A DNA stretch of 64,000 bases from an uncultured Armatimonadetes bacterium (lineage in GTDB: Bacteria > Armatimonadota > Armatimonadia > Armatimonadales > Capsulimonadaceae). A program made the translations under genes and the position numbers. Each line of letters opens with the position of its first letter. Within the stretch, counting starts at the first letter, position 1. Of this stretch, positions 3,476 to 58,253 are shown one piece after another. Location of the stretch: the NCBI GenBank assembly GCA_963835235.1, contig CAWIET010000003.1, forward strand, positions 182,960-246,959. The letters run 5' to 3'. The notes under the pieces are model-generated. The model did not search any database, was not told the origin of the DNA, and saw only the letters and a program-made list of their open reading frames with translations.

Positions 3476-3638
3476 GAAACACCTCTTTCTGAGATACCCA
3501 GTTTCAGTGTGAAACTATCCATACTAGCGTAAATTAATTATAGATAGTATATCACAAATCACCAAAAAATCAACCTGACTGCTTTTTGTGCAATCAGGCT
3601 GATCTCAGGTCTCTTAAAAGGGTCGCTGGGGAAGAGAG

Positions 3639-8311: not shown

Positions 8312-9007
8312 ATGCGTAAGTCAACCCGCTGGCTCACCCAGAGCCGCCTTCTTCTCGCCGGAGCAGGACTTCTGCTCCTTTCCCACCCCGCAATGGCTGC
8401 CTCTGTTGGCAAAAATACATCTGCTCTTCCGTCTAGTCCTACTTCGTCTTCTTCCGTGACCCTTTCCGCATTACAAAAGACGCTGGTTTCCAACCATACT
8501 GACCATGACCCGTTGTGTATAAATATATACGACGCCAGTACACCACTACCTTCAATAACAGGTGTGACAGTTGCCCCCAATAATGGAAATCCGTCCCATG
8601 ATATTCTTCTTGTAGGGCATCCATACACAGTTGTTGTGTTCACTGACTACATGAACCCTAACTCCAAGGAACGTGTAGAATTGAGGATGTATTATATATC
8701 ACTCAATTCCTCAGGGAACCCTGTCCTGACACCTTTACCTGATAGGCACAATGTGTGTTACACCATCACGCCCGTTCCTACACCTCCTTCCATGCCTGGA
8801 ATAACGATGTTTACAGTTACATTCACGGATAAAGTATTCTATCTTGGTCTTGATACTGGCGACAATGAAAGCCACTTGAAGCGTAAAATGATGATTGGAG
8901 CAGTGACAATTGATACTACAGATATTAGTCAAGAACCTGCCGGTCATGTGCGCTATAAGGAACTTTTCTTGGAGCCAGTCTCCTTGCTCTTGAAGGATGA
9001 CCAGTAA
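8312..9007 (+). CDS. secreted protein of unknown function in a low-GC segment; distant paralog of 7665-8162
   Basis: AGGAGG lies 8 nt upstream of the ATG. The signal peptide is MRKSTRWLTQSRLLLAGAGLLLLSHPAMA. It shares a DHDPL motif with the preceding protein. Four 60-nt lines counted by hand gave 38-48% GC. Confidence 0.55.
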   Translation: MRKSTRWLTQSRLLLAGAGLLLLSHPAMAASVGKNTSALPSSPTSSSSVTLSALQKTLVSNHTDHDPLCINIYDASTPLPSITGVTVAPNNGNPSHDILLVGHPYTVVVFTDYMNPNSKERVELRMYYISLNSSGNPVLTPLPDRHNVCYTITPVPTPPSMPGITMFTVTFTDKVFYLGLDTGDNESHLKRKMMIGAVTIDTTDISQEPAGHVRYKELFLEPVSLLLKDDQ

Positions 9008-9009
9008 CT

Positions 9010-9630
9010 ATGAGCAACATATTTCTTATCTTACACGGCTGGGGCGGCAACAAGGCGGAGCACTGGCAGGAGCATCTGGCGCGGGAATTGACGGCGGCGG
9101 GGAAGGACGTGCGGTATCCCAAAATGCCGGAGCCGATGGCCCCGAACCCGGATAAATGGATGGACGGTTTACACCACGTATTGGAGGACGTTCCGGCAGA
9201 CGCCAATTTAACCGTGCTGGCGCACTCGCTGGGAGCCATCAACTGGATGCGTAATGCGGCGATGGCAGAAGGAATGGGGAACGCGCGTCCCGGCCCGGTG
9301 GCCGACCGCGTGCTGCTGGTCGCGCCGCCGTATGTGATGCATGAAATCCCGCCGCTGGACGCGCCGCCCGGCGCGGCGGACTTCTTTCCGCCCGCGTTGT
9401 CCAAGCCGGGCATCGCCGCCGTGAGCCGCGAAACCGTGCTGGTGGCGTCCGACACGGATGATTACGCGACGTTTGATCAGTCGGCGGCGTATGCGGACGG
9501 TCTGGGCGTTCCCCTTGAGAAACTCGCAGGCGGAGGCCACATTTCGCCCTACTACGGCTATGGAGAATGGCCCTGGGTGCTGGAATGGGCATTGGGGCAG
9601 GCGTCCCTGCCGCCCCGGCCCAATCGCTGA
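9010..9630 (+). CDS. RBBP9/YdeN-family alpha/beta serine hydrolase
   Basis: IFLILHGWGGNKAEHWQ N-terminus, nucleophile elbow AHSLG, about 200 aa. Confidence 0.7.
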   Translation: MSNIFLILHGWGGNKAEHWQEHLARELTAAGKDVRYPKMPEPMAPNPDKWMDGLHHVLEDVPADANLTVLAHSLGAINWMRNAAMAEGMGNARPGPVADRVLLVAPPYVMHEIPPLDAPPGAADFFPPALSKPGIAAVSRETVLVASDTDDYATFDQSAAYADGLGVPLEKLAGGGHISPYYGYGEWPWVLEWALGQASLPPRPNR

Positions 9631-18738: not shown

Positions 18739-19338
18739 TCACCCCAGCCCAATCTGGCACAGACAGCAGCGCGAAACGGGGGACGGGGCAATCAAAACGC
18801 CGCACCCGGCGCAGGGAACCCAGCCGTGCGCCCGTTTCCATTCCGAAGCGCGGGCAAGGCGGGTGAGCGCGTGACGCAGACGGTCGCGGCCTGCTTCGTC
18901 TTCAATGCCGCCGACAGCGGCTTCAATGCGCGCGCGGGCATCGGGAGAAAGCAGCGTGGTTTCCAGTTCGCCGTCGGCGGGCGCGGCGGGCAGAGGCGGT
19001 TCCTTATTCACCGGAGGCGCTTTGGCGCGCGCCAGGCCACTCGCCTTGAAATGCAGGTCGGTGAGAACAGGGCCGCCCAGCGCGAGGTTCAGGCGGCGCA
19101 GAATATCGCCCTTCAGCAAGACCAACTCATTGGCCCACACGCTGTTTTTGACCCGGACAACCAACTCCGTGCCGTTCTGCACGCGCTCTACTTGCGTGAC
19201 TCCCGCCACCTGCGGCCCCACAATCTCCGCCCACAGCGCCTTCGCCAGATGCGGACGCAGTTTGGCGGCTAAATCGTGCGAGCGAAGCAGGCCGTCCAAA
19301 GCGCCGGACGCGGGGGAAATGATGGGAGAACGTCTCAT
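18739..19338 (-). CDS. DUF721 (DciA-type) protein with a C-terminal Cys-rich extension
   Basis: LAKALWAEIVGPQVAGVTQVERVQNGTELVVRVKNSVWANELVLLKGDILRRLN matches the DUF721 core usually found near recF, dnaN or gyrB. The tail has CAGCG...CCLC. Confidence 0.7.
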   Translation of the reverse strand: MRRSPIISPASGALDGLLRSHDLAAKLRPHLAKALWAEIVGPQVAGVTQVERVQNGTELVVRVKNSVWANELVLLKGDILRRLNLALGGPVLTDLHFKASGLARAKAPPVNKEPPLPAAPADGELETTLLSPDARARIEAAVGGIEDEAGRDRLRHALTRLARASEWKRAHGWVPCAGCGVLIAPSPVSRCCLCQIGLG

Positions 19339-20187: not shown

Positions 20188-21318
20188 TTATTGCCGGGCC
20201 ACCTGCCCTGCCGTCACCTCATACACGCAGGCGCGCTCTAAAACGCCTTTGGAGAACGCCCGCAAATTCGTGCAGGACAGAAACGTTTGGGAACCGGCGC
20301 GGGCAGTGAGGTCAAACAAATGGCGGCGGCGGGCATCGTCCAAATCCGACAGCACATCGTCTAACAGCAGCAGGGGCGGCTCTCCGACCAGTTCTTCAAG
20401 GAGTTGCCGCTCCGCCAGTTTCAGCGACAATGCGACCGTGCGCTGCTGCCCCTGCGACCCAAACGCGCGGCAGTCCTGCCCGTTGACGCAGAACAGAATA
20501 TCGTCGCGCTGCGGCCCACGCAAAGTCGTGCCGCGCGCCAGTTCATCCGAAGCCACCGCGTTTAACGCCTCTGAGAAACGAGCGCCAATGGCATCGGCGT
20601 CGGTCAACTCATCCAGCGAAAACGAGGGAACATACGCCACTTGCAGCGTGTCTCGTCCATCGCTGAGGGTGTGATGCACGCCCTCCGCCAGCTGCGACAG
20701 CCGTTCCAGAAACAAACGCCGCCGTTCTATCAAACGCGCCCCATGCTGCACCAGCTGGGCATTCCAGGCGGGCAGAGACCCACGCGCTTCGTGCCCCGCA
20801 CGCCCATCACGCAAATCTCTCAAGAGGCGATTGCGCTGCTCCAATGCCTTGCGGAACGCGCCGAGCGCATACACATAACGAGGGGAAGTTTGGGCAATCT
20901 CCAAGTCCAGAAAGCGGCGGCGCACGGATGGCTCACCCCGAATAATCTCCAGGTCGCCGCTGTCAAACAACACGGCGTTCACCTGCCCAATCACTTCGGC
21001 TAGTTTGGTGTGCCGCACGCCATTGATGCGCGCCGCCTTCTTTTCCGTCTGGGACAGGAGCATCTCCAAAGCGATGTCGGGCGACTGCACGCGCACCACA
21101 TCGGCTCGCACACGCGCGAACGGCTGCTCAAACTGCACCAGTTCGGTGTCTTTGGCCGCCCGTGCCGACTTGCTCGTCGCCAGCACGTACAGGCTCTCTA
21201 ACAGATTGCTCTTGCCCTGCGCGTTGCGCCCGACAAAGATATTCAATCCCTCTCCCGGCTCCACGCGAAGAGAAGCATAGTTGCGAAAGTGTTCCAGTTC
21301 CAGCGACGTAATATGCAT
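20188..21318 (-). CDS. recF: DNA replication and repair protein RecF
   Basis: MHITSLELEHFRNY...FVGRNAQGKSNLLESL (Walker A), signature LSQGQQRTVALSLKLA, Walker B LLLLDDVLSDLD. Confidence 0.95.
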   Translation of the reverse strand: MHITSLELEHFRNYASLRVEPGEGLNIFVGRNAQGKSNLLESLYVLATSKSARAAKDTELVQFEQPFARVRADVVRVQSPDIALEMLLSQTEKKAARINGVRHTKLAEVIGQVNAVLFDSGDLEIIRGEPSVRRRFLDLEIAQTSPRYVYALGAFRKALEQRNRLLRDLRDGRAGHEARGSLPAWNAQLVQHGARLIERRRLFLERLSQLAEGVHHTLSDGRDTLQVAYVPSFSLDELTDADAIGARFSEALNAVASDELARGTTLRGPQRDDILFCVNGQDCRAFGSQGQQRTVALSLKLAERQLLEELVGEPPLLLLDDVLSDLDDARRRHLFDLTARAGSQTFLSCTNLRAFSKGVLERACVYEVTAGQVARQ

Positions 21319-21412
21319 TCACGTTCTCAGGCGAAATGGACTTGCTCTGCGCTCCGCCTCCGAGTCTTTTACCCTTAGATAGAAGAATCTTAATTGGTAG
21401 TAGTAATAGAAG

Positions 21413-21675
21413 TGTGACTCAACTGTGACTCAACGAAACGCACCCATGCGAACGGGACGTTTTCGCCTGCAAACCCTACACATTCACGCTTGCACGAACA
21501 TCGCAGCCGCTGATAATGCTCCGTTTCGCTGAGTCACAAGAGAGTCACACAGTGTGACTCAACGGCACAAAACTGTGACTCAACGCTGCCCACTGTGACT
21601 CTCTTCCACCCTTGAGTCACACTTTCCCACGTTGAGTCACAGTTGAGTCACACTGTGACTCTCAATTGTGACTCA
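21413..21675. repeat. 12 copies of the 9-mer TGAGTCACA/TGTGACTCA (9 perfect, 3 with one mismatch), in both orientations
   Basis: Starts at 21413, 21424, 21553, 21574, 21594, 21654 and 21667 (TGTGACTCA-type on +). Starts at 21530, 21541, 21613, 21633 and 21644 (TGAGTCACA-type on +). Three same-orientation pairs are exactly 11 bp apart. Confidence 0.9.
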
Positions 21676-21700
21676 ATATCTCGCCTTGATATTGTCCCCG

Positions 21701-21820
21701 AAGTCAGGCCCAAGTCGCCCTAAGTTCACGCAAGTCACCGCAAGTCAATGCAAGTTAACGCAAGTGATATCAAGTGAAATGAAGTGATCACAAGTGATCA
21801 CAAGTGAACACAAGGTAAAA
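21701..21820. repeat. about 12 tandem 10-bp units NCAAGTNANN, with AAGT in strict 10-bp phase
   Basis: AAGT at 21701, 21712, 21722, 21732, 21742, 21752, 21762, 21772, 21782, 21792 and 21802, then AAGG at 21812. The units become more AT-rich toward 21820. Confidence 0.9.
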
Positions 21821-21950
21821 ACAGCCTTTGTCTGCCGAAAATCAGCCCGTTTGTCTGCTCCTAAGAGCGAACACAGGCGCCGTTGTCTACTATGCGTTTG
21901 GCCCGGTTGTCAAACACTGTCCCCTTCGCTGTGGACAAGGCCCCCACTCG

Positions 21951-22058
21951 GAAGGGCGACCCTCCCCCCACGTTTAGGGGGAAGGGTAAGACAAGCAAAG
22001 CGCAGCAGGGTTTCCTCCCCCCAAACTTGGGGGGCCGGGGGGGCCGTCCTTCCCCTGC
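21951..22058. repeat. GC-rich palindromic repeat element, copy B; same family as the insert in dapF
   Basis: GAAGGGCGACCCTCCCCCCACGTTTAGGGGGAAGGGTAAGACAA aligns at roughly 80% identity by eye with 61941-61984. It is followed by the hairpin CCCCCCAAACTTGGGGGG. Confidence 0.6.
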
Positions 22059-24854
22059 CTACAGGCTGTATTCAATCACCTTGCGAATGCGAGTCAGCAG
22101 GGCCAGCACTTCCGGGTCGGTCGTCATGTCGTCGCGCAGGCGGGCGTGGGCGTGGACAATCGCTGTGTGGCTTTTGAGGCCAAACGCCGCCGCCAGCGTC
22201 GTCATCGGCACCCCGCTCATCTCCTTGACGAAATACATCGCCACCTGACGCGCATACCCCGCGTCCCCTTTGCCGCGCCGCGCCGAACGCGCCCCGCCTG
22301 TCAGAATCAGTTCCGGCTCAATGCCCATCTGCGCGGCAACGGCATCCACAATCTGGTCAACTGTCGGCCCCGCGCTGGGGCGCGACGCGGGGTAATCGTC
22401 CGGGTGCGCTGATGCGAGCGGCAGGGAAGACGATGGCAGACGCTCCACAAAGTACGATGACAGCACATCGGACGCCAGTTGTTTGGTGACCGGGCTTTTG
22501 GCAAGCGACGCATACGCCATCAGTTTAATCAGCGCGCCCTCCAATGCCCGAATATTGCTTTGGATCAGGTTCGCCATGTACGCAATCACTTCATCCGGGA
22601 TACGCAGATTGTCTAAAATCGCCTTCTTCTGCAAGATCGCCATCCGCATTTCCAGTTCGGGAGGCGCAATGTCGGCAATCAAACCGCCCTCAAAGCGGGT
22701 GCGAAGCCGCTCGTCCATCGTGCGAAGTTCACGCGGAGAGCGGTCGGACGTAATCACAATCTGCCGGTTCATCTGGTGCAGCGTGTTGAACGTGTGAAAG
22801 AACTCTTCTTTGGTCTGCTCTTTGGACGCGATGGTCTGAATGTCGTCTACCAGCCACACGTCTACCGACCGGTACGCCCTGCGAAAATCCTCCGTGCGCT
22901 TGTCCCGCAGCGCCGCAACGTAATGATTGGTGAACGTCTCCCCGCTCACATACGCCACCCGCGCCTGCGGAAGCGCCAGCCGCACCTGATGACCAATCGC
23001 GTGCATGAGATGCGTGTTGTGCTCCCAGAACGTTGTCAGGAACGTCTCATAACCTGGCACTTCAATGGCAACCGTTGGCTCCACGCCCGCAGGCTCCACC
23101 GACACGACCTTCTCCCAGCGCAGTCCGGCGGGGGCTGCCGTATGACGCCACTGTCCCCGATTGGGCCGCGTCGCCGCCACTTGTTCCGCTACGCCTCGCA
23201 CGCGCTCCACCGCGTCTTCCTTGCCAAAGATGCCCACGCGCGCGGTAAACTGAAGCACTTGCGCGGCGGCATGAATGGCAACTGTCCAGGCCCGCACTTT
23301 GGGTTTGTGCGCGATGCGCGACACAATGCCCAGTTTCAGCAGCAACTCCTGCACGTCGCGCGCCAGCCCTTCCGACGCCGAGCAGTAGCCGATTTCCGTT
23401 CGCGGAAGACGGTTGCCCGGACGCTCCGCGCCGCACGCCGCCCAGCCATCGGTGGCGAACAAACGCGACAGGAACAAGGCCAACTGCTCCGGCGGCAGGG
23501 TAAATACAGCGGGCGGAATGCGTTTGTCGCGCGAGTGCTGCCCCATCAAACCGTGCCGTCTCAGCAGGTTTATCACATCATTGCGGCAGTCCTGACCCTG
23601 CGCCACGCGCCCGCGCCGCCCGACAATGCGCCAATCATAGCGGTTGTGCTGAATCAGGCGGCAATTCGTCTGTGCCACGCACTCCTTGAACTCCGCCAAC
23701 TGCGCGTTGTCCTGCTGGCTGAAGCGCACGCCTTGCGTAGTGCCGCCATCGCCAATCAAATACGCCAGCAGCTTCACTTCATGCTCCGGCAGGGATACGG
23801 GAGAGCCAAACGCAGGCAGGCATTCCGTCACCGCGACTAAATCCCCTGCCGCAATCGCGCAAAGGGGCGTCCATCCGCGCACCGCGATGCGCCCAAAGTT
23901 CTTGCCCATATGCCGCACACCCTGCCCCGTCCAGAGTGGGTGCTGTCCGTTGCGCCTAATCCGCCGCCCGCTTTCGGTTTCAATTGCCCACACCGGCTCA
24001 ACGGCATTCCATTCGGCGCGCGCGGCAACGGCCTTTATCTCTTCTTTAGCAAGCGTCAGCAGAGAAAACTCTGTACCCACCAACTCGCCTGCCTGCACCC
24101 GCCGCCCATCCGCCAGGTGCAGGGTTTCCGACGCGGCCACGCACTTTCCCAGGCCGGGATTGCCGTACAAAAACAGTGGGTTATACAGGGTTCCGAGCGC
24201 ACCGGCCACCGCCAGCGCGCCCGCATGAGCGAGCCGGTTGGACTTGCCCACGACAAAGTGCTCAAACGTGTATTTGTCGTTGAGCGGCGCGGCGGCCAGT
24301 TCCAGCAGAAACGGATTGCGCGCGCCTTCGGCAAGCCCCAGCGCGACGGCGGTTCCGCCATTGCCGCCATGCGTGGGCGCGGCGAAGGGAAGCGTCTCTT
24401 GCAGCGGCGCGAGGGCTGTGACAGGCGGCGCAAGCGCCGTCACAGGCGGCTCTGCCAGCGGCGACGCGGCCTGCTGCAAGGGCAGCGGCTTTTCGCCCAG
24501 CAAGGGCTGCACGGACGGGGTGGAAATGACAAACCGAACCTGCACGGCAGGCAGGTCAAGAAACTGCGCCAGCGACGCGCTGAGTATCTGCGCGTACTTC
24601 TTTTCCGCCCATTCCCGCGCAAACGCCGACGGCGCTCCGAGCACCACAATCGTTCCGTCCAAAGAAAGCGGCTTCAGGGGACGCAGAAAGTTGTCAAATG
24701 TCGGCTTGTTGAACTGAGAAGCCAGCGCGCGCAGGGTGCGATCCCACGCTTTACGCAGGGCGATGGCGCTGTCATCTTCACCGAGTTCCAATTGCTGCTC
24801 CTGCGGAGAAGGGTCATCATCGGGCGCGGCAGCATGGGGCGGGCGAATAGTCAC
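22059..24854 (-). CDS. dnaA: chromosomal replication initiator DnaA, containing an intein in the Walker-A loop
   Basis: Domain I/II N-terminus, then FEHFVVGKSNRLAH and LFLYGNPGLGK|[intein]|THLMHAIGH. Further motifs are DVWLVDDIQTIASK (Walker B), FHTFNTL, IVITSDR and domain IV (YARQVAMYFVKEM...FGLKSHTAIVHA). The linker has a PPVTALA duplication. The gene ends in TAG. Confidence 0.95.
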   Translation of the reverse strand: MTIRPPHAAAPDDDPSPQEQQLELGEDDSAIALRKAWDRTLRALASQFNKPTFDNFLRPLKPLSLDGTIVVLGAPSAFAREWAEKKYAQILSASLAQFLDLPAVQVRFVISTPSVQPLLGEKPLPLQQAASPLAEPPVTALAPPVTALAPLQETLPFAAPTHGGNGGTAVALGLAEGARNPFLLELAAAPLNDKYTFEHFVVGKSNRLAHAGALAVAGALGTLYNPLFLYGNPGLGKCVAASETLHLADGRRVQAGELVGTEFSLLTLAKEEIKAVAARAEWNAVEPVWAIETESGRRIRRNGQHPLWTGQGVRHMGKNFGRIAVRGWTPLCAIAAGDLVAVTECLPAFGSPVSLPEHEVKLLAYLIGDGGTTQGVRFSQQDNAQLAEFKECVAQTNCRLIQHNRYDWRIVGRRGRVAQGQDCRNDVINLLRRHGLMGQHSRDKRIPPAVFTLPPEQLALFLSRLFATDGWAACGAERPGNRLPRTEIGYCSASEGLARDVQELLLKLGIVSRIAHKPKVRAWTVAIHAAAQVLQFTARVGIFGKEDAVERVRGVAEQVAATRPNRGQWRHTAAPAGLRWEKVVSVEPAGVEPTVAIEVPGYETFLTTFWEHNTHLMHAIGHQVRLALPQARVAYVSGETFTNHYVAALRDKRTEDFRRAYRSVDVWLVDDIQTIASKEQTKEEFFHTFNTLHQMNRQIVITSDRSPRELRTMDERLRTRFEGGLIADIAPPELEMRMAILQKKAILDNLRIPDEVIAYMANLIQSNIRALEGALIKLMAYASLAKSPVTKQLASDVLSSYFVERLPSSSLPLASAHPDDYPASRPSAGPTVDQIVDAVAAQMGIEPELILTGGARSARRGKGDAGYARQVAMYFVKEMSGVPMTTLAAAFGLKSHTAIVHAHARLRDDMTTDPEVLALLTRIRKVIEYSL
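23016..24143 (-). mobile_element. 376-aa intein with a LAGLIDADG homing-endonuclease domain inserted after Lys237 of DnaA
   Basis: It begins with Cys (GLGK|CVAASETLHLADG) and ends ...TFLTTFWEHN|T, with Thr as the +1 extein residue, which restores GLGKT. The two LAGLIDADG motifs are KLLAYLIGDGG and LFLSRLFATDGWA. A block-B-like segment is NGQHPLWT. Confidence 0.85.
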
Positions 24855-57083: not shown

Positions 57084-57764
57084 CTACGGCGTTCTTTCCT
57101 CAATGCGCCCGTCGGCATAGCCAATCACCAGCCGCTGGCACAGCCCGACAAACAGGCCCGCGTCCACTACGCCCACCACCCGCTTAATCTCGGCTTCCAA
57201 CTGCGGCGGGTCAGGCAGGGGCGCTCCAAACGCCATGTCCAGCACGAACAGCCCGTCGTCGCTCACAAATGGCCCGCCGTCCGCTGTCAACCGGCGCGGC
57301 GCAGGGACGCCAAACTTTGCCTCCAGACGCGCCTGCGTCGCCGTCCACGCCCAGGAAAGCACGGCCACCGGCAGCGGGAACGCCCCTAATGCCGCCTTCA
57401 CTTTCCCTTCGTCCACCACGATAATCTCCGTCGTGGAGGCAACAGCAGTTAATTTTTCCCGCACCAGCGCCCCGCCGCCGCCCTTAATCAAGCACAGTGC
57501 CGGGTCTACTTCGTCCGCGCCGTCAATGGTGATGTCCAGTTGGGAAATGTCCTCCCACCTCACCAGCGGCAGGCCGTTCTCGCGCGCCAGCGTCGCCGAT
57601 GCCTCCGACGTGGCAAGGCAGCGCAGGCGCAGGTTCTCCTGCCGGGCGCGCGCGCCGATGGCAACAATGGCATACGCCGCCGTGCTGCCGGAGCCGAGGC
57701 CCACCGTCATGCCGGTCTCTACATAGGTTGCGGCGCGTTCGGCGGCTGTCTGTTTAGGGTTCAC
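57084..57764 (-). CDS. rpiA: ribose-5-phosphate isomerase A
   Basis: AAERAATYVETGMTVGLGSGSTAAYAI, IDGADEVD and KGGGGALVREK. The start is placed at GTG 57764. The ORF-track start at 57788 is a TTG only 10 nt from the tRNA. Confidence 0.85.
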   Translation of the reverse strand: MNPKQTAAERAATYVETGMTVGLGSGSTAAYAIVAIGARARQENLRLRCLATSEASATLARENGLPLVRWEDISQLDITIDGADEVDPALCLIKGGGGALVREKLTAVASTTEIIVVDEGKVKAALGAFPLPVAVLSWAWTATQARLEAKFGVPAPRRLTADGGPFVSDDGLFVLDMAFGAPLPDPPQLEAEIKRVVGVVDAGLFVGLCQRLVIGYADGRIEERTP

Positions 57765-57798
57765 GGGGTGTTCAACAGGGGATAGCAAACAAGAAGAC

Positions 57799-57884: not shown

Positions 57885-58027
57885 GGGCACAGGGGACATT
57901 CTACCCGCCCCGCCGCCGCCCTGTCAAGAACCCGTTACCAATGCCCCCGCAACACGCTCCTCATGCCAAAGCACTGGCAGCAGCAGAGCAGTCATAAATC
58001 AACATAGGGCAAACGAAAGCGTTCCCA

Positions 58028-58096
58028 TAGGCTTTTAATAGGCTTTTAATAGGCTTTTAATAGGCTTTTAATAGGCTTTTAATAGGCTTTTAATAG
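58028..58096. repeat. perfect 11-bp tandem repeat TAGGCTTTTAA x6 plus a partial copy
   Basis: Direct reading: units start at 58028, 58039, 58050, 58061, 58072 and 58083, then TAG. Confidence 0.95.
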
Positions 58097-58253
58097 TAAC
58101 TGCATAGAAACTTGATAGCAAACACATCGCCTTTCCATAGCCCATGCAAGGCAGCGGCAAGGGAAACGCACTGCTTGCACTTGGCAGGAAACGCGGGCGC
58201 GCGCGGCGAACACTCCCAGGACGAAGGCATTGTTAGGCGTCATAGAGGGCGAC

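Follow-up and report, generated by a model that had tools for sequence, protein, structure and literature searches.

A lineage-specific array of AAGT units phased at 10 bp in the chromosomal origin of a Capsulimonadaceae bacterium

Introduction

Does a tetramer repeated once per helical turn beside the DnaA boxes of a bacterial origin mark a track on which a protein assembles, and if so which protein, or is it a tandem repeat without function? The question is raised by the 740-bp spacer between dnaA and recF in a 64-kb stretch of DNA (the window), which its RecF and DnaA relatives place in the family Capsulimonadaceae, phylum Armatimonadota. How bacterial origins, which differ widely, gain new control elements is little known, and at this locus a very clean conserved core of TAG trios, tandem boxes and perfect non-canonical boxes lies beside a young track confined to one lineage. 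An initial annotation of this DNA had described a phased AAGT array there, and had suggested either a protein filament track akin to low-affinity DnaA-site arrays or intrinsically curved DNA.

Results

Twelve units in a strict register

Direct reading and counting of positions 21701–21821 gave 12 units in about 120 bp, 11 carrying AAGT and one AAGG, in the order GAAGTCAGGCC, ten AAGT-N6 units and then AAGGTAAAAA (Table 1). In the ten central units AAGT starts at 21712, 21722 and so on to 21802, spaced exactly 10 bp apart (n = 10) with no insertion or deletion, and the two flanking copies that the initial annotation had named, AAGT at 21701 (11 bp before the first phased copy) and a degenerate AAGG at 21812, were both read there. 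On the plus strand of 21301–22100, the sole AAGT outside the array lies at 21410.

The strict 10-bp phasing without slippage over about 12 units, as first described, was borne out by these exact copies and by comparison with randomised sequence: a pattern of three phased AAGT matched eight times, always within the array, against 0.00 matches in 100 dinucleotide-preserving shuffles. Among all 4-mers at periods 5 to 15, the array is the longest phased chain of the 64-kb window, and self-identity at lag 10 reaches 0.79 there and at most 0.46 elsewhere in the window; TRF likewise returned a period of 10. The array is thus real and non-random. Its columns 1–4 are invariant and columns 5–10 hold 0.15–1.08 bits, with C preceding AAGT in eight of the ten units and A in column 6, again in eight of ten.

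Units 1–5 read AAGTC or AAGTT and are GC-rich, and units 6–10 read AAGTGA with more AT; units 8 and 9 are identical (AAGTGATCAC), with one GATC in each. The GC-to-AT gradient reported earlier is genuine, GC content by unit running 0.6, 0.5, 0.6, 0.4, 0.4, 0.3, 0.3, 0.4, 0.4, 0.4 and 0.2 from left to right (Spearman rho −0.73, p = 0.01). The placing of every unit on one helix face needs correction: with a unit every 10.0 bp and a helical turn of 10.5 bp, each box is turned 17 degrees from the one before, about 170 degrees across the array, and a common face would be kept only if the DNA were overtwisted or the path left-handed.

Table 1 Features of the dnaA-recF spacer and its flanks, with positions in the window
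Feature	Position	Strand	Basis or remark
Left flanking unit AAGTCAGGCCC, 11 bp	21701–21711	+	One base off the register of the other units
Ten phased 10-bp units AAGT-N6, consensus C-AAGT-N-A	21712–21811	+	Direct read, count, TRF, shuffles, column analysis
Degenerate terminal unit AAGGTAAAAA (AAGG at 21812)	21812–21821	+	Direct read, count
Lineage-specific 380-bp segment holding the array	21681–22058	.	Unmatched by blastn in all 50 related dnaA-recF loci
TTTGTCTGC direct repeats, 23-bp period	21817–21858		Within the lineage-specific segment
Two C-run/G-run hairpins, CCCCCCACGTTTAGGGGG and CCCCCCAAACTTGGGGGG	21961–21986, 22014–22039		Just past the dnaA stop codon
Cluster of ten TGAGTCACA-type DnaA boxes, both orientations	21530–21677	.	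Conserved in relatives
Probable unwinding module: AT-rich stretch, trios, two tandem boxes	21368–21434	+	At the recF-proximal end, opposite the array
dnaA (931 aa), its Walker A loop interrupted by a 376-aa LAGLIDADG intein	22059–24854	−	Context
recF, directly downstream of the origin spacer	20188–21318	−	Context

The array adjoins a conserved origin core

The dnaA-recF spacer is a chromosomal origin. No dnaN lies between the two genes, and dciA (18739–19338) is found two genes beyond recF. Twelve of the window's 14 GAGTCAC heptamers fall within 21413–21677, where the expectation for the whole window is 4.5, and the DnaA-box consensus of this origin is (T)TGAGTCACA. At the recF-proximal end, trios TAG TAG TAA TAG AAG at 21398–21412 run into the tandem boxes TGTGACTCAAC at 21413–21434, next to 21368–21407, where the duplex is least stable within the spacer (−1.10 kcal/mol per step) and ranks second lowest for the whole window. 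The basal unwinding system has been defined by at least three NAN trios with a central A, no more than 16 bp from a DnaA box, TAG being the commonest (PMC8287927), and TAG repeats are known in Thermotoga too (PMC10316083). In its sequence the 21368–21434 module matches this published system, and by a strict pattern it is present in 41 of 49 related loci. The initial annotation was therefore right to place the array in a true oriC adjoining DnaA boxes, twelve GAGTCAC boxes and the unwinding module sharing one spacer with it. One caveat on the identity of the origin is that GC skew does not turn from minus to plus at 21.7 kb, and in relatives does so only weakly.

From the dnaA-proximal edge of the DnaA-box cluster to the array there is a gap of 23 bp. 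A palindrome, CAATATC-N7-GATATTG at 21674–21694, bridges the last DnaA box and the array and could be an operator for a dimeric protein.

Several further features of the locus were recorded. The least stable duplexes of the window are AT-rich islands at 3530–3570 and 8500–9030, GC content being 0.57 at 8–10 kb and about 0.63 overall. The dnaA intein occupies 23016–24143 on the minus strand, with junctions GNPGLGK|C...HN|THL; a similar insert is present in 28 of the 120 best DnaA relatives, and a full-text search found no paper in which DnaA, intein and LAGLIDADG occur together. About 80 of the same 120 relatives carry the DnaA domain IV motif FGLKSHTA(I/V). The non-canonical box TGAGTCACA is used at 21413–21677 and in loci L001–L027 and L227–L250, while TGTGTCACA, an alternative form of the DnaA box, takes its place at many sites in L020 and L021. 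Many relatives have a second cluster of boxes, of the TGTCACA type, at the dnaA stop codon; the window has no such cluster.

Of the 16 XYNY'X' palindromes, GANTC shows the strongest depletion in the window, with 41 sites outside the origin where 138 (Markov) or 216 (composition) were expected, and is less depleted in relatives (394 seen, 568 expected). Fourteen GANTC sites crowd into the origin core (21362–21674) because the DnaA-box core GAGTCAC contains GAGTC; the AAGT units are not GANTC sites. This depletion suggests a GANTC-specific restriction or methylation system, and the DnaA boxes are possibly methylation-sensitive.

Related origins share the core and lack the array

We compared the spacer with loci of relatives, 27 of them from genomes and about 24 from metagenomes, whose RecF proteins are 61–81% identical to that of the window. 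Many of these relatives have 9–16 GAGTCAC boxes upstream of recF, and the common order is recF, an AT-rich stretch, trios, tandem boxes, a spacer of about 100 bp, a box cluster and dnaA. In the 27 genome loci no phased chain of at least five copies of any 4-mer was found upstream of recF, in the approximately 24 metagenome loci no chain of at least three AAGT or ACTT, and no lag-10 or lag-11 peak anywhere in the related loci of either kind. When 21201–22200 was searched with blastn against 50 related loci, recF, the unwinding module at 21361–21440, the DnaA boxes at 21521–21680 and dnaA were covered, whereas 21681–22060 was covered by none of the 50; the array therefore lies in a lineage-specific segment of 380 bp. 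The initial annotation had asked for the same periodicity in related genomes and had named its absence from them beforehand as evidence against the proposal; phased chains, lag-10/11 self-identity and blastn all returned that absence.

At the same spacer position, relatives hold unrelated repeats and insertions: a hairpin element in L025, an inserted ORF in L022 and a TGTCACA-box cluster in many loci. Two closely related origins, L232 and L248, carry tandem repeats of 20–33 bp and of 13 bp, differing in copy number between them, in a large palindromic insertion between box cluster and dnaA. The spacer is a hot spot of repeat turnover in this group of origins. The best DnaA homologue among 5.8 billion proteins searched is 71–74% identical; no record of the exact recF product was found, and searches of public sequencing runs did not recover the stretch.

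The lineage-specific segment holds other repeats as well. Two copies of the direct repeat AACAGCC(C)GTTTGTCTGC stand 23 bp apart in 21817–21858, with further GTTGTC motifs at 21882 and 21906 (21882–21912). The two C-run/G-run hairpins beyond it have no counterpart elsewhere in the window; they may end dnaA transcription ahead of the origin.

Absence from some 50 related origins, together with a position outside the conserved parts, leaves the array at most an accessory protein-binding track, peripheral within the origin and specific to one lineage. It is not the unwinding element, nor is it needed for the conserved origin design; neither the 50 related origins nor the conserved unwinding module at the far end of the spacer supports a place in the origin core. 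Absence from all relatives also means that comparison lends no support to a function.

Growth by duplication around a constrained tetramer

In the variable columns of the array, identity falls from 3.4 of 6 between neighbours to 2.0 of 6 at a distance of four units or more, a decay which indicates growth by local duplication followed by divergence. The array, head-to-tail and with similarity decaying with distance, has the marks of a tandem repeat born by slippage. A 30-bp higher-order repeat, hinted at by the TRF score, was rejected, similarity dropping steadily with distance. The left units AAGTCAGG, AAGTCGCC, AAGTTCAC, AAGTCACC and AAGTCAAT are one or two changes away from GAGTCAC, which makes a DnaA-box-like seed plausible; the resemblance of early units to that core had been pointed out before, and AAGTCAC at 21732 and AAGTCAA at 21742 show it.

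The six variable columns have accumulated 23 changes when adjacent units are compared (a minimum spanning tree requires 15 or more), against none in the AAGT columns. Were changes spread evenly, four contiguous untouched columns would arise with P = 8e-5 (23 changes) or about 0.005 (15 changes), values that carry a selection effect, the array having been chosen for its regularity. An AAGT that stayed invariant through 15–23 changes elsewhere looks constrained, and from these counts the core is probably so.

A second array, at 58027–58140, consists of six perfect tandem units of ATAGGCTTTTA and, after them, five 11-bp units in which ATAG is all that matches the perfect ones, with one of the five reading ATCG. 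It is phased at 11 bp and lies outside any origin. Its neighbours are an rpiA-like ORF, named from its translation (57084–57788, minus strand), and a 114-aa ORF followed by a UDG-superfamily gene. This array too keeps only its tetramer, away from an origin, and phased tetramer tracks in this genome are accordingly not tied to DnaA.

Does DnaA read the array?

The initial annotation had likened the units to low-affinity DnaA sites. If that were so, DnaA-ATP would spread from the adjacent strong boxes over weak head-to-tail boxes, buffering DnaA or timing initiation. The closeness of the box cluster, 23 bp from the array start, favours this, as do the left units, which agree with the box core at five or six of seven positions (AAGTCAC, AAGTCAA) and point the same way as the plus-strand boxes; AGT at box positions 3–5 is kept in all units and A7 in most. 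Strong boxes stand exactly 10 bp apart in relatives L002/L229, L001 and L022, and units 8–10 bear TCACA or ACACA in 10-bp phase, although shifted 3 bp from the box register.

The E. coli oriC provides the model: in its low-affinity arrays (tau2-I1-I2 and C3-C2-I3-C1) sites of one orientation, one per turn, fill cooperatively, and its DnaA-ATP sites deviate mainly in the TGTG/CACA half and need a bound neighbour (PMC6727663). The array shares with them a place within oriC beside strong boxes, a common orientation and one site per helical turn. The E. coli arrays, however, have four sites at an 11-bp period, are bracketed by strong boxes and lack an invariant tetramer, whereas here 12 units follow at 10.0 bp with one open end, carry A for G and are absent from relatives. 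Anchoring, moreover, is doubtful: beyond the 23-bp gap the two nearest strong boxes are inverted, and no strong box lies on the right. The 11-bp period of E. coli is also that of this origin's own tandem boxes.

Base preference also weighs against DnaA. The first core position is A in 12 of 12 units, against 390 G and 2 A in 31 related origins (GAGTCAC 390, GTGTCAC 45, AAGTCAC 2), AAGTCAC being at the level of coding-sequence background. Were a base other than G simply tolerated, A, C and T would all be expected there, as drift has produced in the neighbouring columns. Most units have lost the CACA half or carry it out of register, CAC standing in register in unit 3 only. AAGT is not enriched in the relatives' origins (66 seen, about 86 expected), and of the 50 related loci, otherwise of conserved design, none has an array at the corresponding place. 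The earlier comparison is weakened by this, though the array does lie close to the boxes and its left units are box-like. We consider weak DnaA sites a rather unlikely explanation.

A repeat without function, or structural DNA?

A functionless minisatellite is, in our judgement, as unlikely as weak DnaA sites. A 10-bp repeat would have been expanded by slippage, in a spacer tolerant of dispensable sequence, and would now be decaying, the invariance of AAGT being due to common descent, a scarcity of independent mutations and the picking of a conspicuous case. Much of what we observed agrees: like a bacterial minisatellite (VNTR), the array is head-to-tail and lineage-specific, its neighbouring units are most alike (units 8 and 9 being the same), and its spacer collects repeats, L232 and L248 having young tandem repeats of differing copy number there and L025 and L022 other insertions. 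The array is absent from all relatives and no function-linked gene lies nearby. A VNTR, however, decays evenly over its unit, whereas the array keeps four contiguous columns untouched against 15–23 changes elsewhere (P from 0.005 to 8e-5). Its register was also held through ten units, and a second, independent case, the ATAG array at 58 kb, has likewise conserved nothing but a tetramer within otherwise unrelated sequence, an outcome that chance would hardly produce twice.

Intrinsic curvature of the array, or a role as a second unwinding element, in either case without a sequence-specific reader, is very improbable: AT content does climb toward 21820, the right half forms a secondary stability minimum (−1.26 to −1.29 kcal/mol per step, window mean −1.58) and the folding of single strands is somewhat stronger than in shuffles (z = −2.4 for RNA, −2.1 for DNA), but the clear minimum of the spacer, −1.10, lies at 21368–21407 beside the conserved trios, AAGT is not an A-tract, the period is 10 rather than the 3 of the genuine trios at 21398–21434, and no run of NAN trios was seen by eye at the right end in any frame on either strand. 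The curvature proposed in the initial annotation is not predicted by a wedge model, which draws the array as straight (end-to-end ratio 0.985, 77th percentile of the window; its own shuffles 0.958). In the same model a phased A-tract gave 0.316 and the 58-kb array 0.66, the most curved DNA predicted in the window.

Other classes of element

Rfam covariance models gave no match at E ≤ 1 in 21200–22200 and the folding z is only about −2, and an RNA element was rejected. No sigma-70-like promoter was seen at the array; one weak terminator-like hairpin is formed from GTGATCAC palindromes. An iteron origin, with repeats of 17–22 bp beside a rep gene, is not what we see: units here measure 10 bp, a rep gene is lacking and the initiator is DnaA with its own boxes. 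Arm sites of lambda-type integrases, which we take to be AAGTCAC-like, were set aside, no integrase occurring among the 15 ORFs scanned and 12 tandem copies being atypical. SeqA/Dam-type control was considered; the array has only two GATC sites.

Annotated plasmids and phages showed only chance-level similarity to the array. A scan of viral contigs for phased AAGT was dominated by simple 5- and 10-bp repeats, with few arrays having variable spacers and none of those linked to an origin. One six-unit array, AAGTATGGAG AAGTATAAAA AAGTATGCAG AAGTATGAAT AAGTATGCAC AAGTATATTT, is shared by seven viral contigs (L056, L069, L080, L094, L105, L133 and L137). In L105 its neighbours are a DUF1492/phrog_36 regulator gene on one side and genes for an HNH endonuclease and a portal protein on the other, and TATAAT follows it; this phage array is probably a binding track of a late promoter or cos region. 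Another viral family of phased AAGT follows an endolysin gene.

Discussion

The explanation that we prefer, while holding it only tentatively, makes the array an accessory track whose phased tetramer boxes an oligomerising protein would coat in cooperative fashion. A 10-bp repeat, probably seeded by a DnaA-box-like AAGTCAC, would have expanded by slipped-strand duplication in a dispensable, hypervariable part of the dnaA-recF spacer, and its register would have been kept since AAGT (ACTT on the other strand) serves as a phased binding box. A DNA-binding protein would read one tetramer per unit in the major groove, with neighbours 10 bp apart touching, such that 11–12 subunits or dimers could coat about 110 bp cooperatively, either following a gentle left-handed spiral or with the DNA slightly overtwisted. 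The role of the variable 6-bp spacers, whose composition runs from GC-rich at the left end to AT-rich at the right, would be limited to tuning local affinity. Lying 23 bp from the box cluster, such a coat could limit or buffer the spreading of DnaA, protect the origin against read-through transcription from dnaA, or act as a tether for it.

Among documented architectures, the nearest is that of parH with the OF operator of plasmid TP228. The parH site comprises 12 degenerate tetramer boxes, eleven of them direct, in about 100 bp with short variable spacers; ParG, a ribbon-helix-helix protein, coats it cooperatively with one dimer per box and no intrinsic bend, by direct readout of the tetramer and indirect readout of the spacers, and function falls gradually as boxes are removed (PMC3130281). 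The parH box is ACTC and that of the array, on the minus strand, ACTT. parH, however, has an 8-bp period and AT-rich spacers and lies just upstream of parFG on a plasmid, unlike the array with its 10-bp period, its spacers grading from GC-rich to AT-rich and its chromosomal origin; a scan of 15 ORFs turned up neither par nor RHH genes, and no parS was found in the window. In layout the array would fit a plasmid-type centromere (at least eight short repeats; here 12). No operon for a binding protein and an NTPase, as in centromeres of the parH, parC or tubC kind, adjoins it.

Similar organisation recurs in other systems. In ParR-parC type II centromeres, short head-to-tail repeats about one turn apart are coated into a superhelical complex; in R1 the iterons are 11 bp long, and pSK41 has 10-bp half repeats. 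There the whole repeat is conserved and the site lies upstream of parMR, genes of which none were found near the array. R1 parC has two sets of five iterons (PMC2241845). The basal unwinding system likewise sets periodic motifs beside DnaA boxes in oriC, and differs from the array in the 3-nt period and central A of its trios; the 21398–21434 module lies about 270 bp away.

Response regulators of the OmpR/PhoB type bind head-to-tail arrays with a 10–11-bp period and a short conserved core, usually of two to six repeats, and CtrA, MtrA and ArcA are response regulators that act inside origins. The array resembles such sites in period, orientation and short core and has no adjacent regulator gene; we know of no OmpR/PhoB-type motif that matches it. 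The array belongs to a known kind, short phased box arrays, and by analogy its invariant tetramer, once per turn, resembles a cooperative protein track. Phased AAGT arrays with variable spacers occur in phage contigs as well, some conserved across seven contigs.

Against this accessory track stand the small number of conserved bases, four being few for a specific reader, the absence from all relatives, P values affected by the choice of a regular array, and the lack of an adjoining reader gene: the neighbours are dnaA, recF, a protein without a Pfam match, dciA and a peroxiredoxin, none of them a candidate. Should a protein bind, DnaA acting in its normal box-reading mode seems to us a somewhat weaker candidate than some other factor.

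A bolder proposal, which we regard as unlikely, is that a DnaA-box fragment was amplified, in the manner of a microsatellite, into a 12-site track to become a recently evolved origin instruction. It would load an oligomer beside the box cluster, either DnaA-ATP in a non-canonical mode or a lineage-specific regulator or tether, and so tune initiation or origin positioning in one lineage. If true, this would be the de novo birth of an accessory oriC module, and, with DnaA as the reader, the first discriminating low-affinity DnaA-site array outside the E. coli group.

If nothing binds, the locus would serve as a warning that a neutral repeat in an origin can show strict helical phasing and an invariant core. 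Either way, the array should not be counted as functional DnaA sites in annotating this origin. If a protein does coat the track, AAGT once per turn would be a simple handle for finding its reader, and the locus would show that regulatory or tethering sites close to an origin can arise through tandem amplification of a fragment of a DnaA box.
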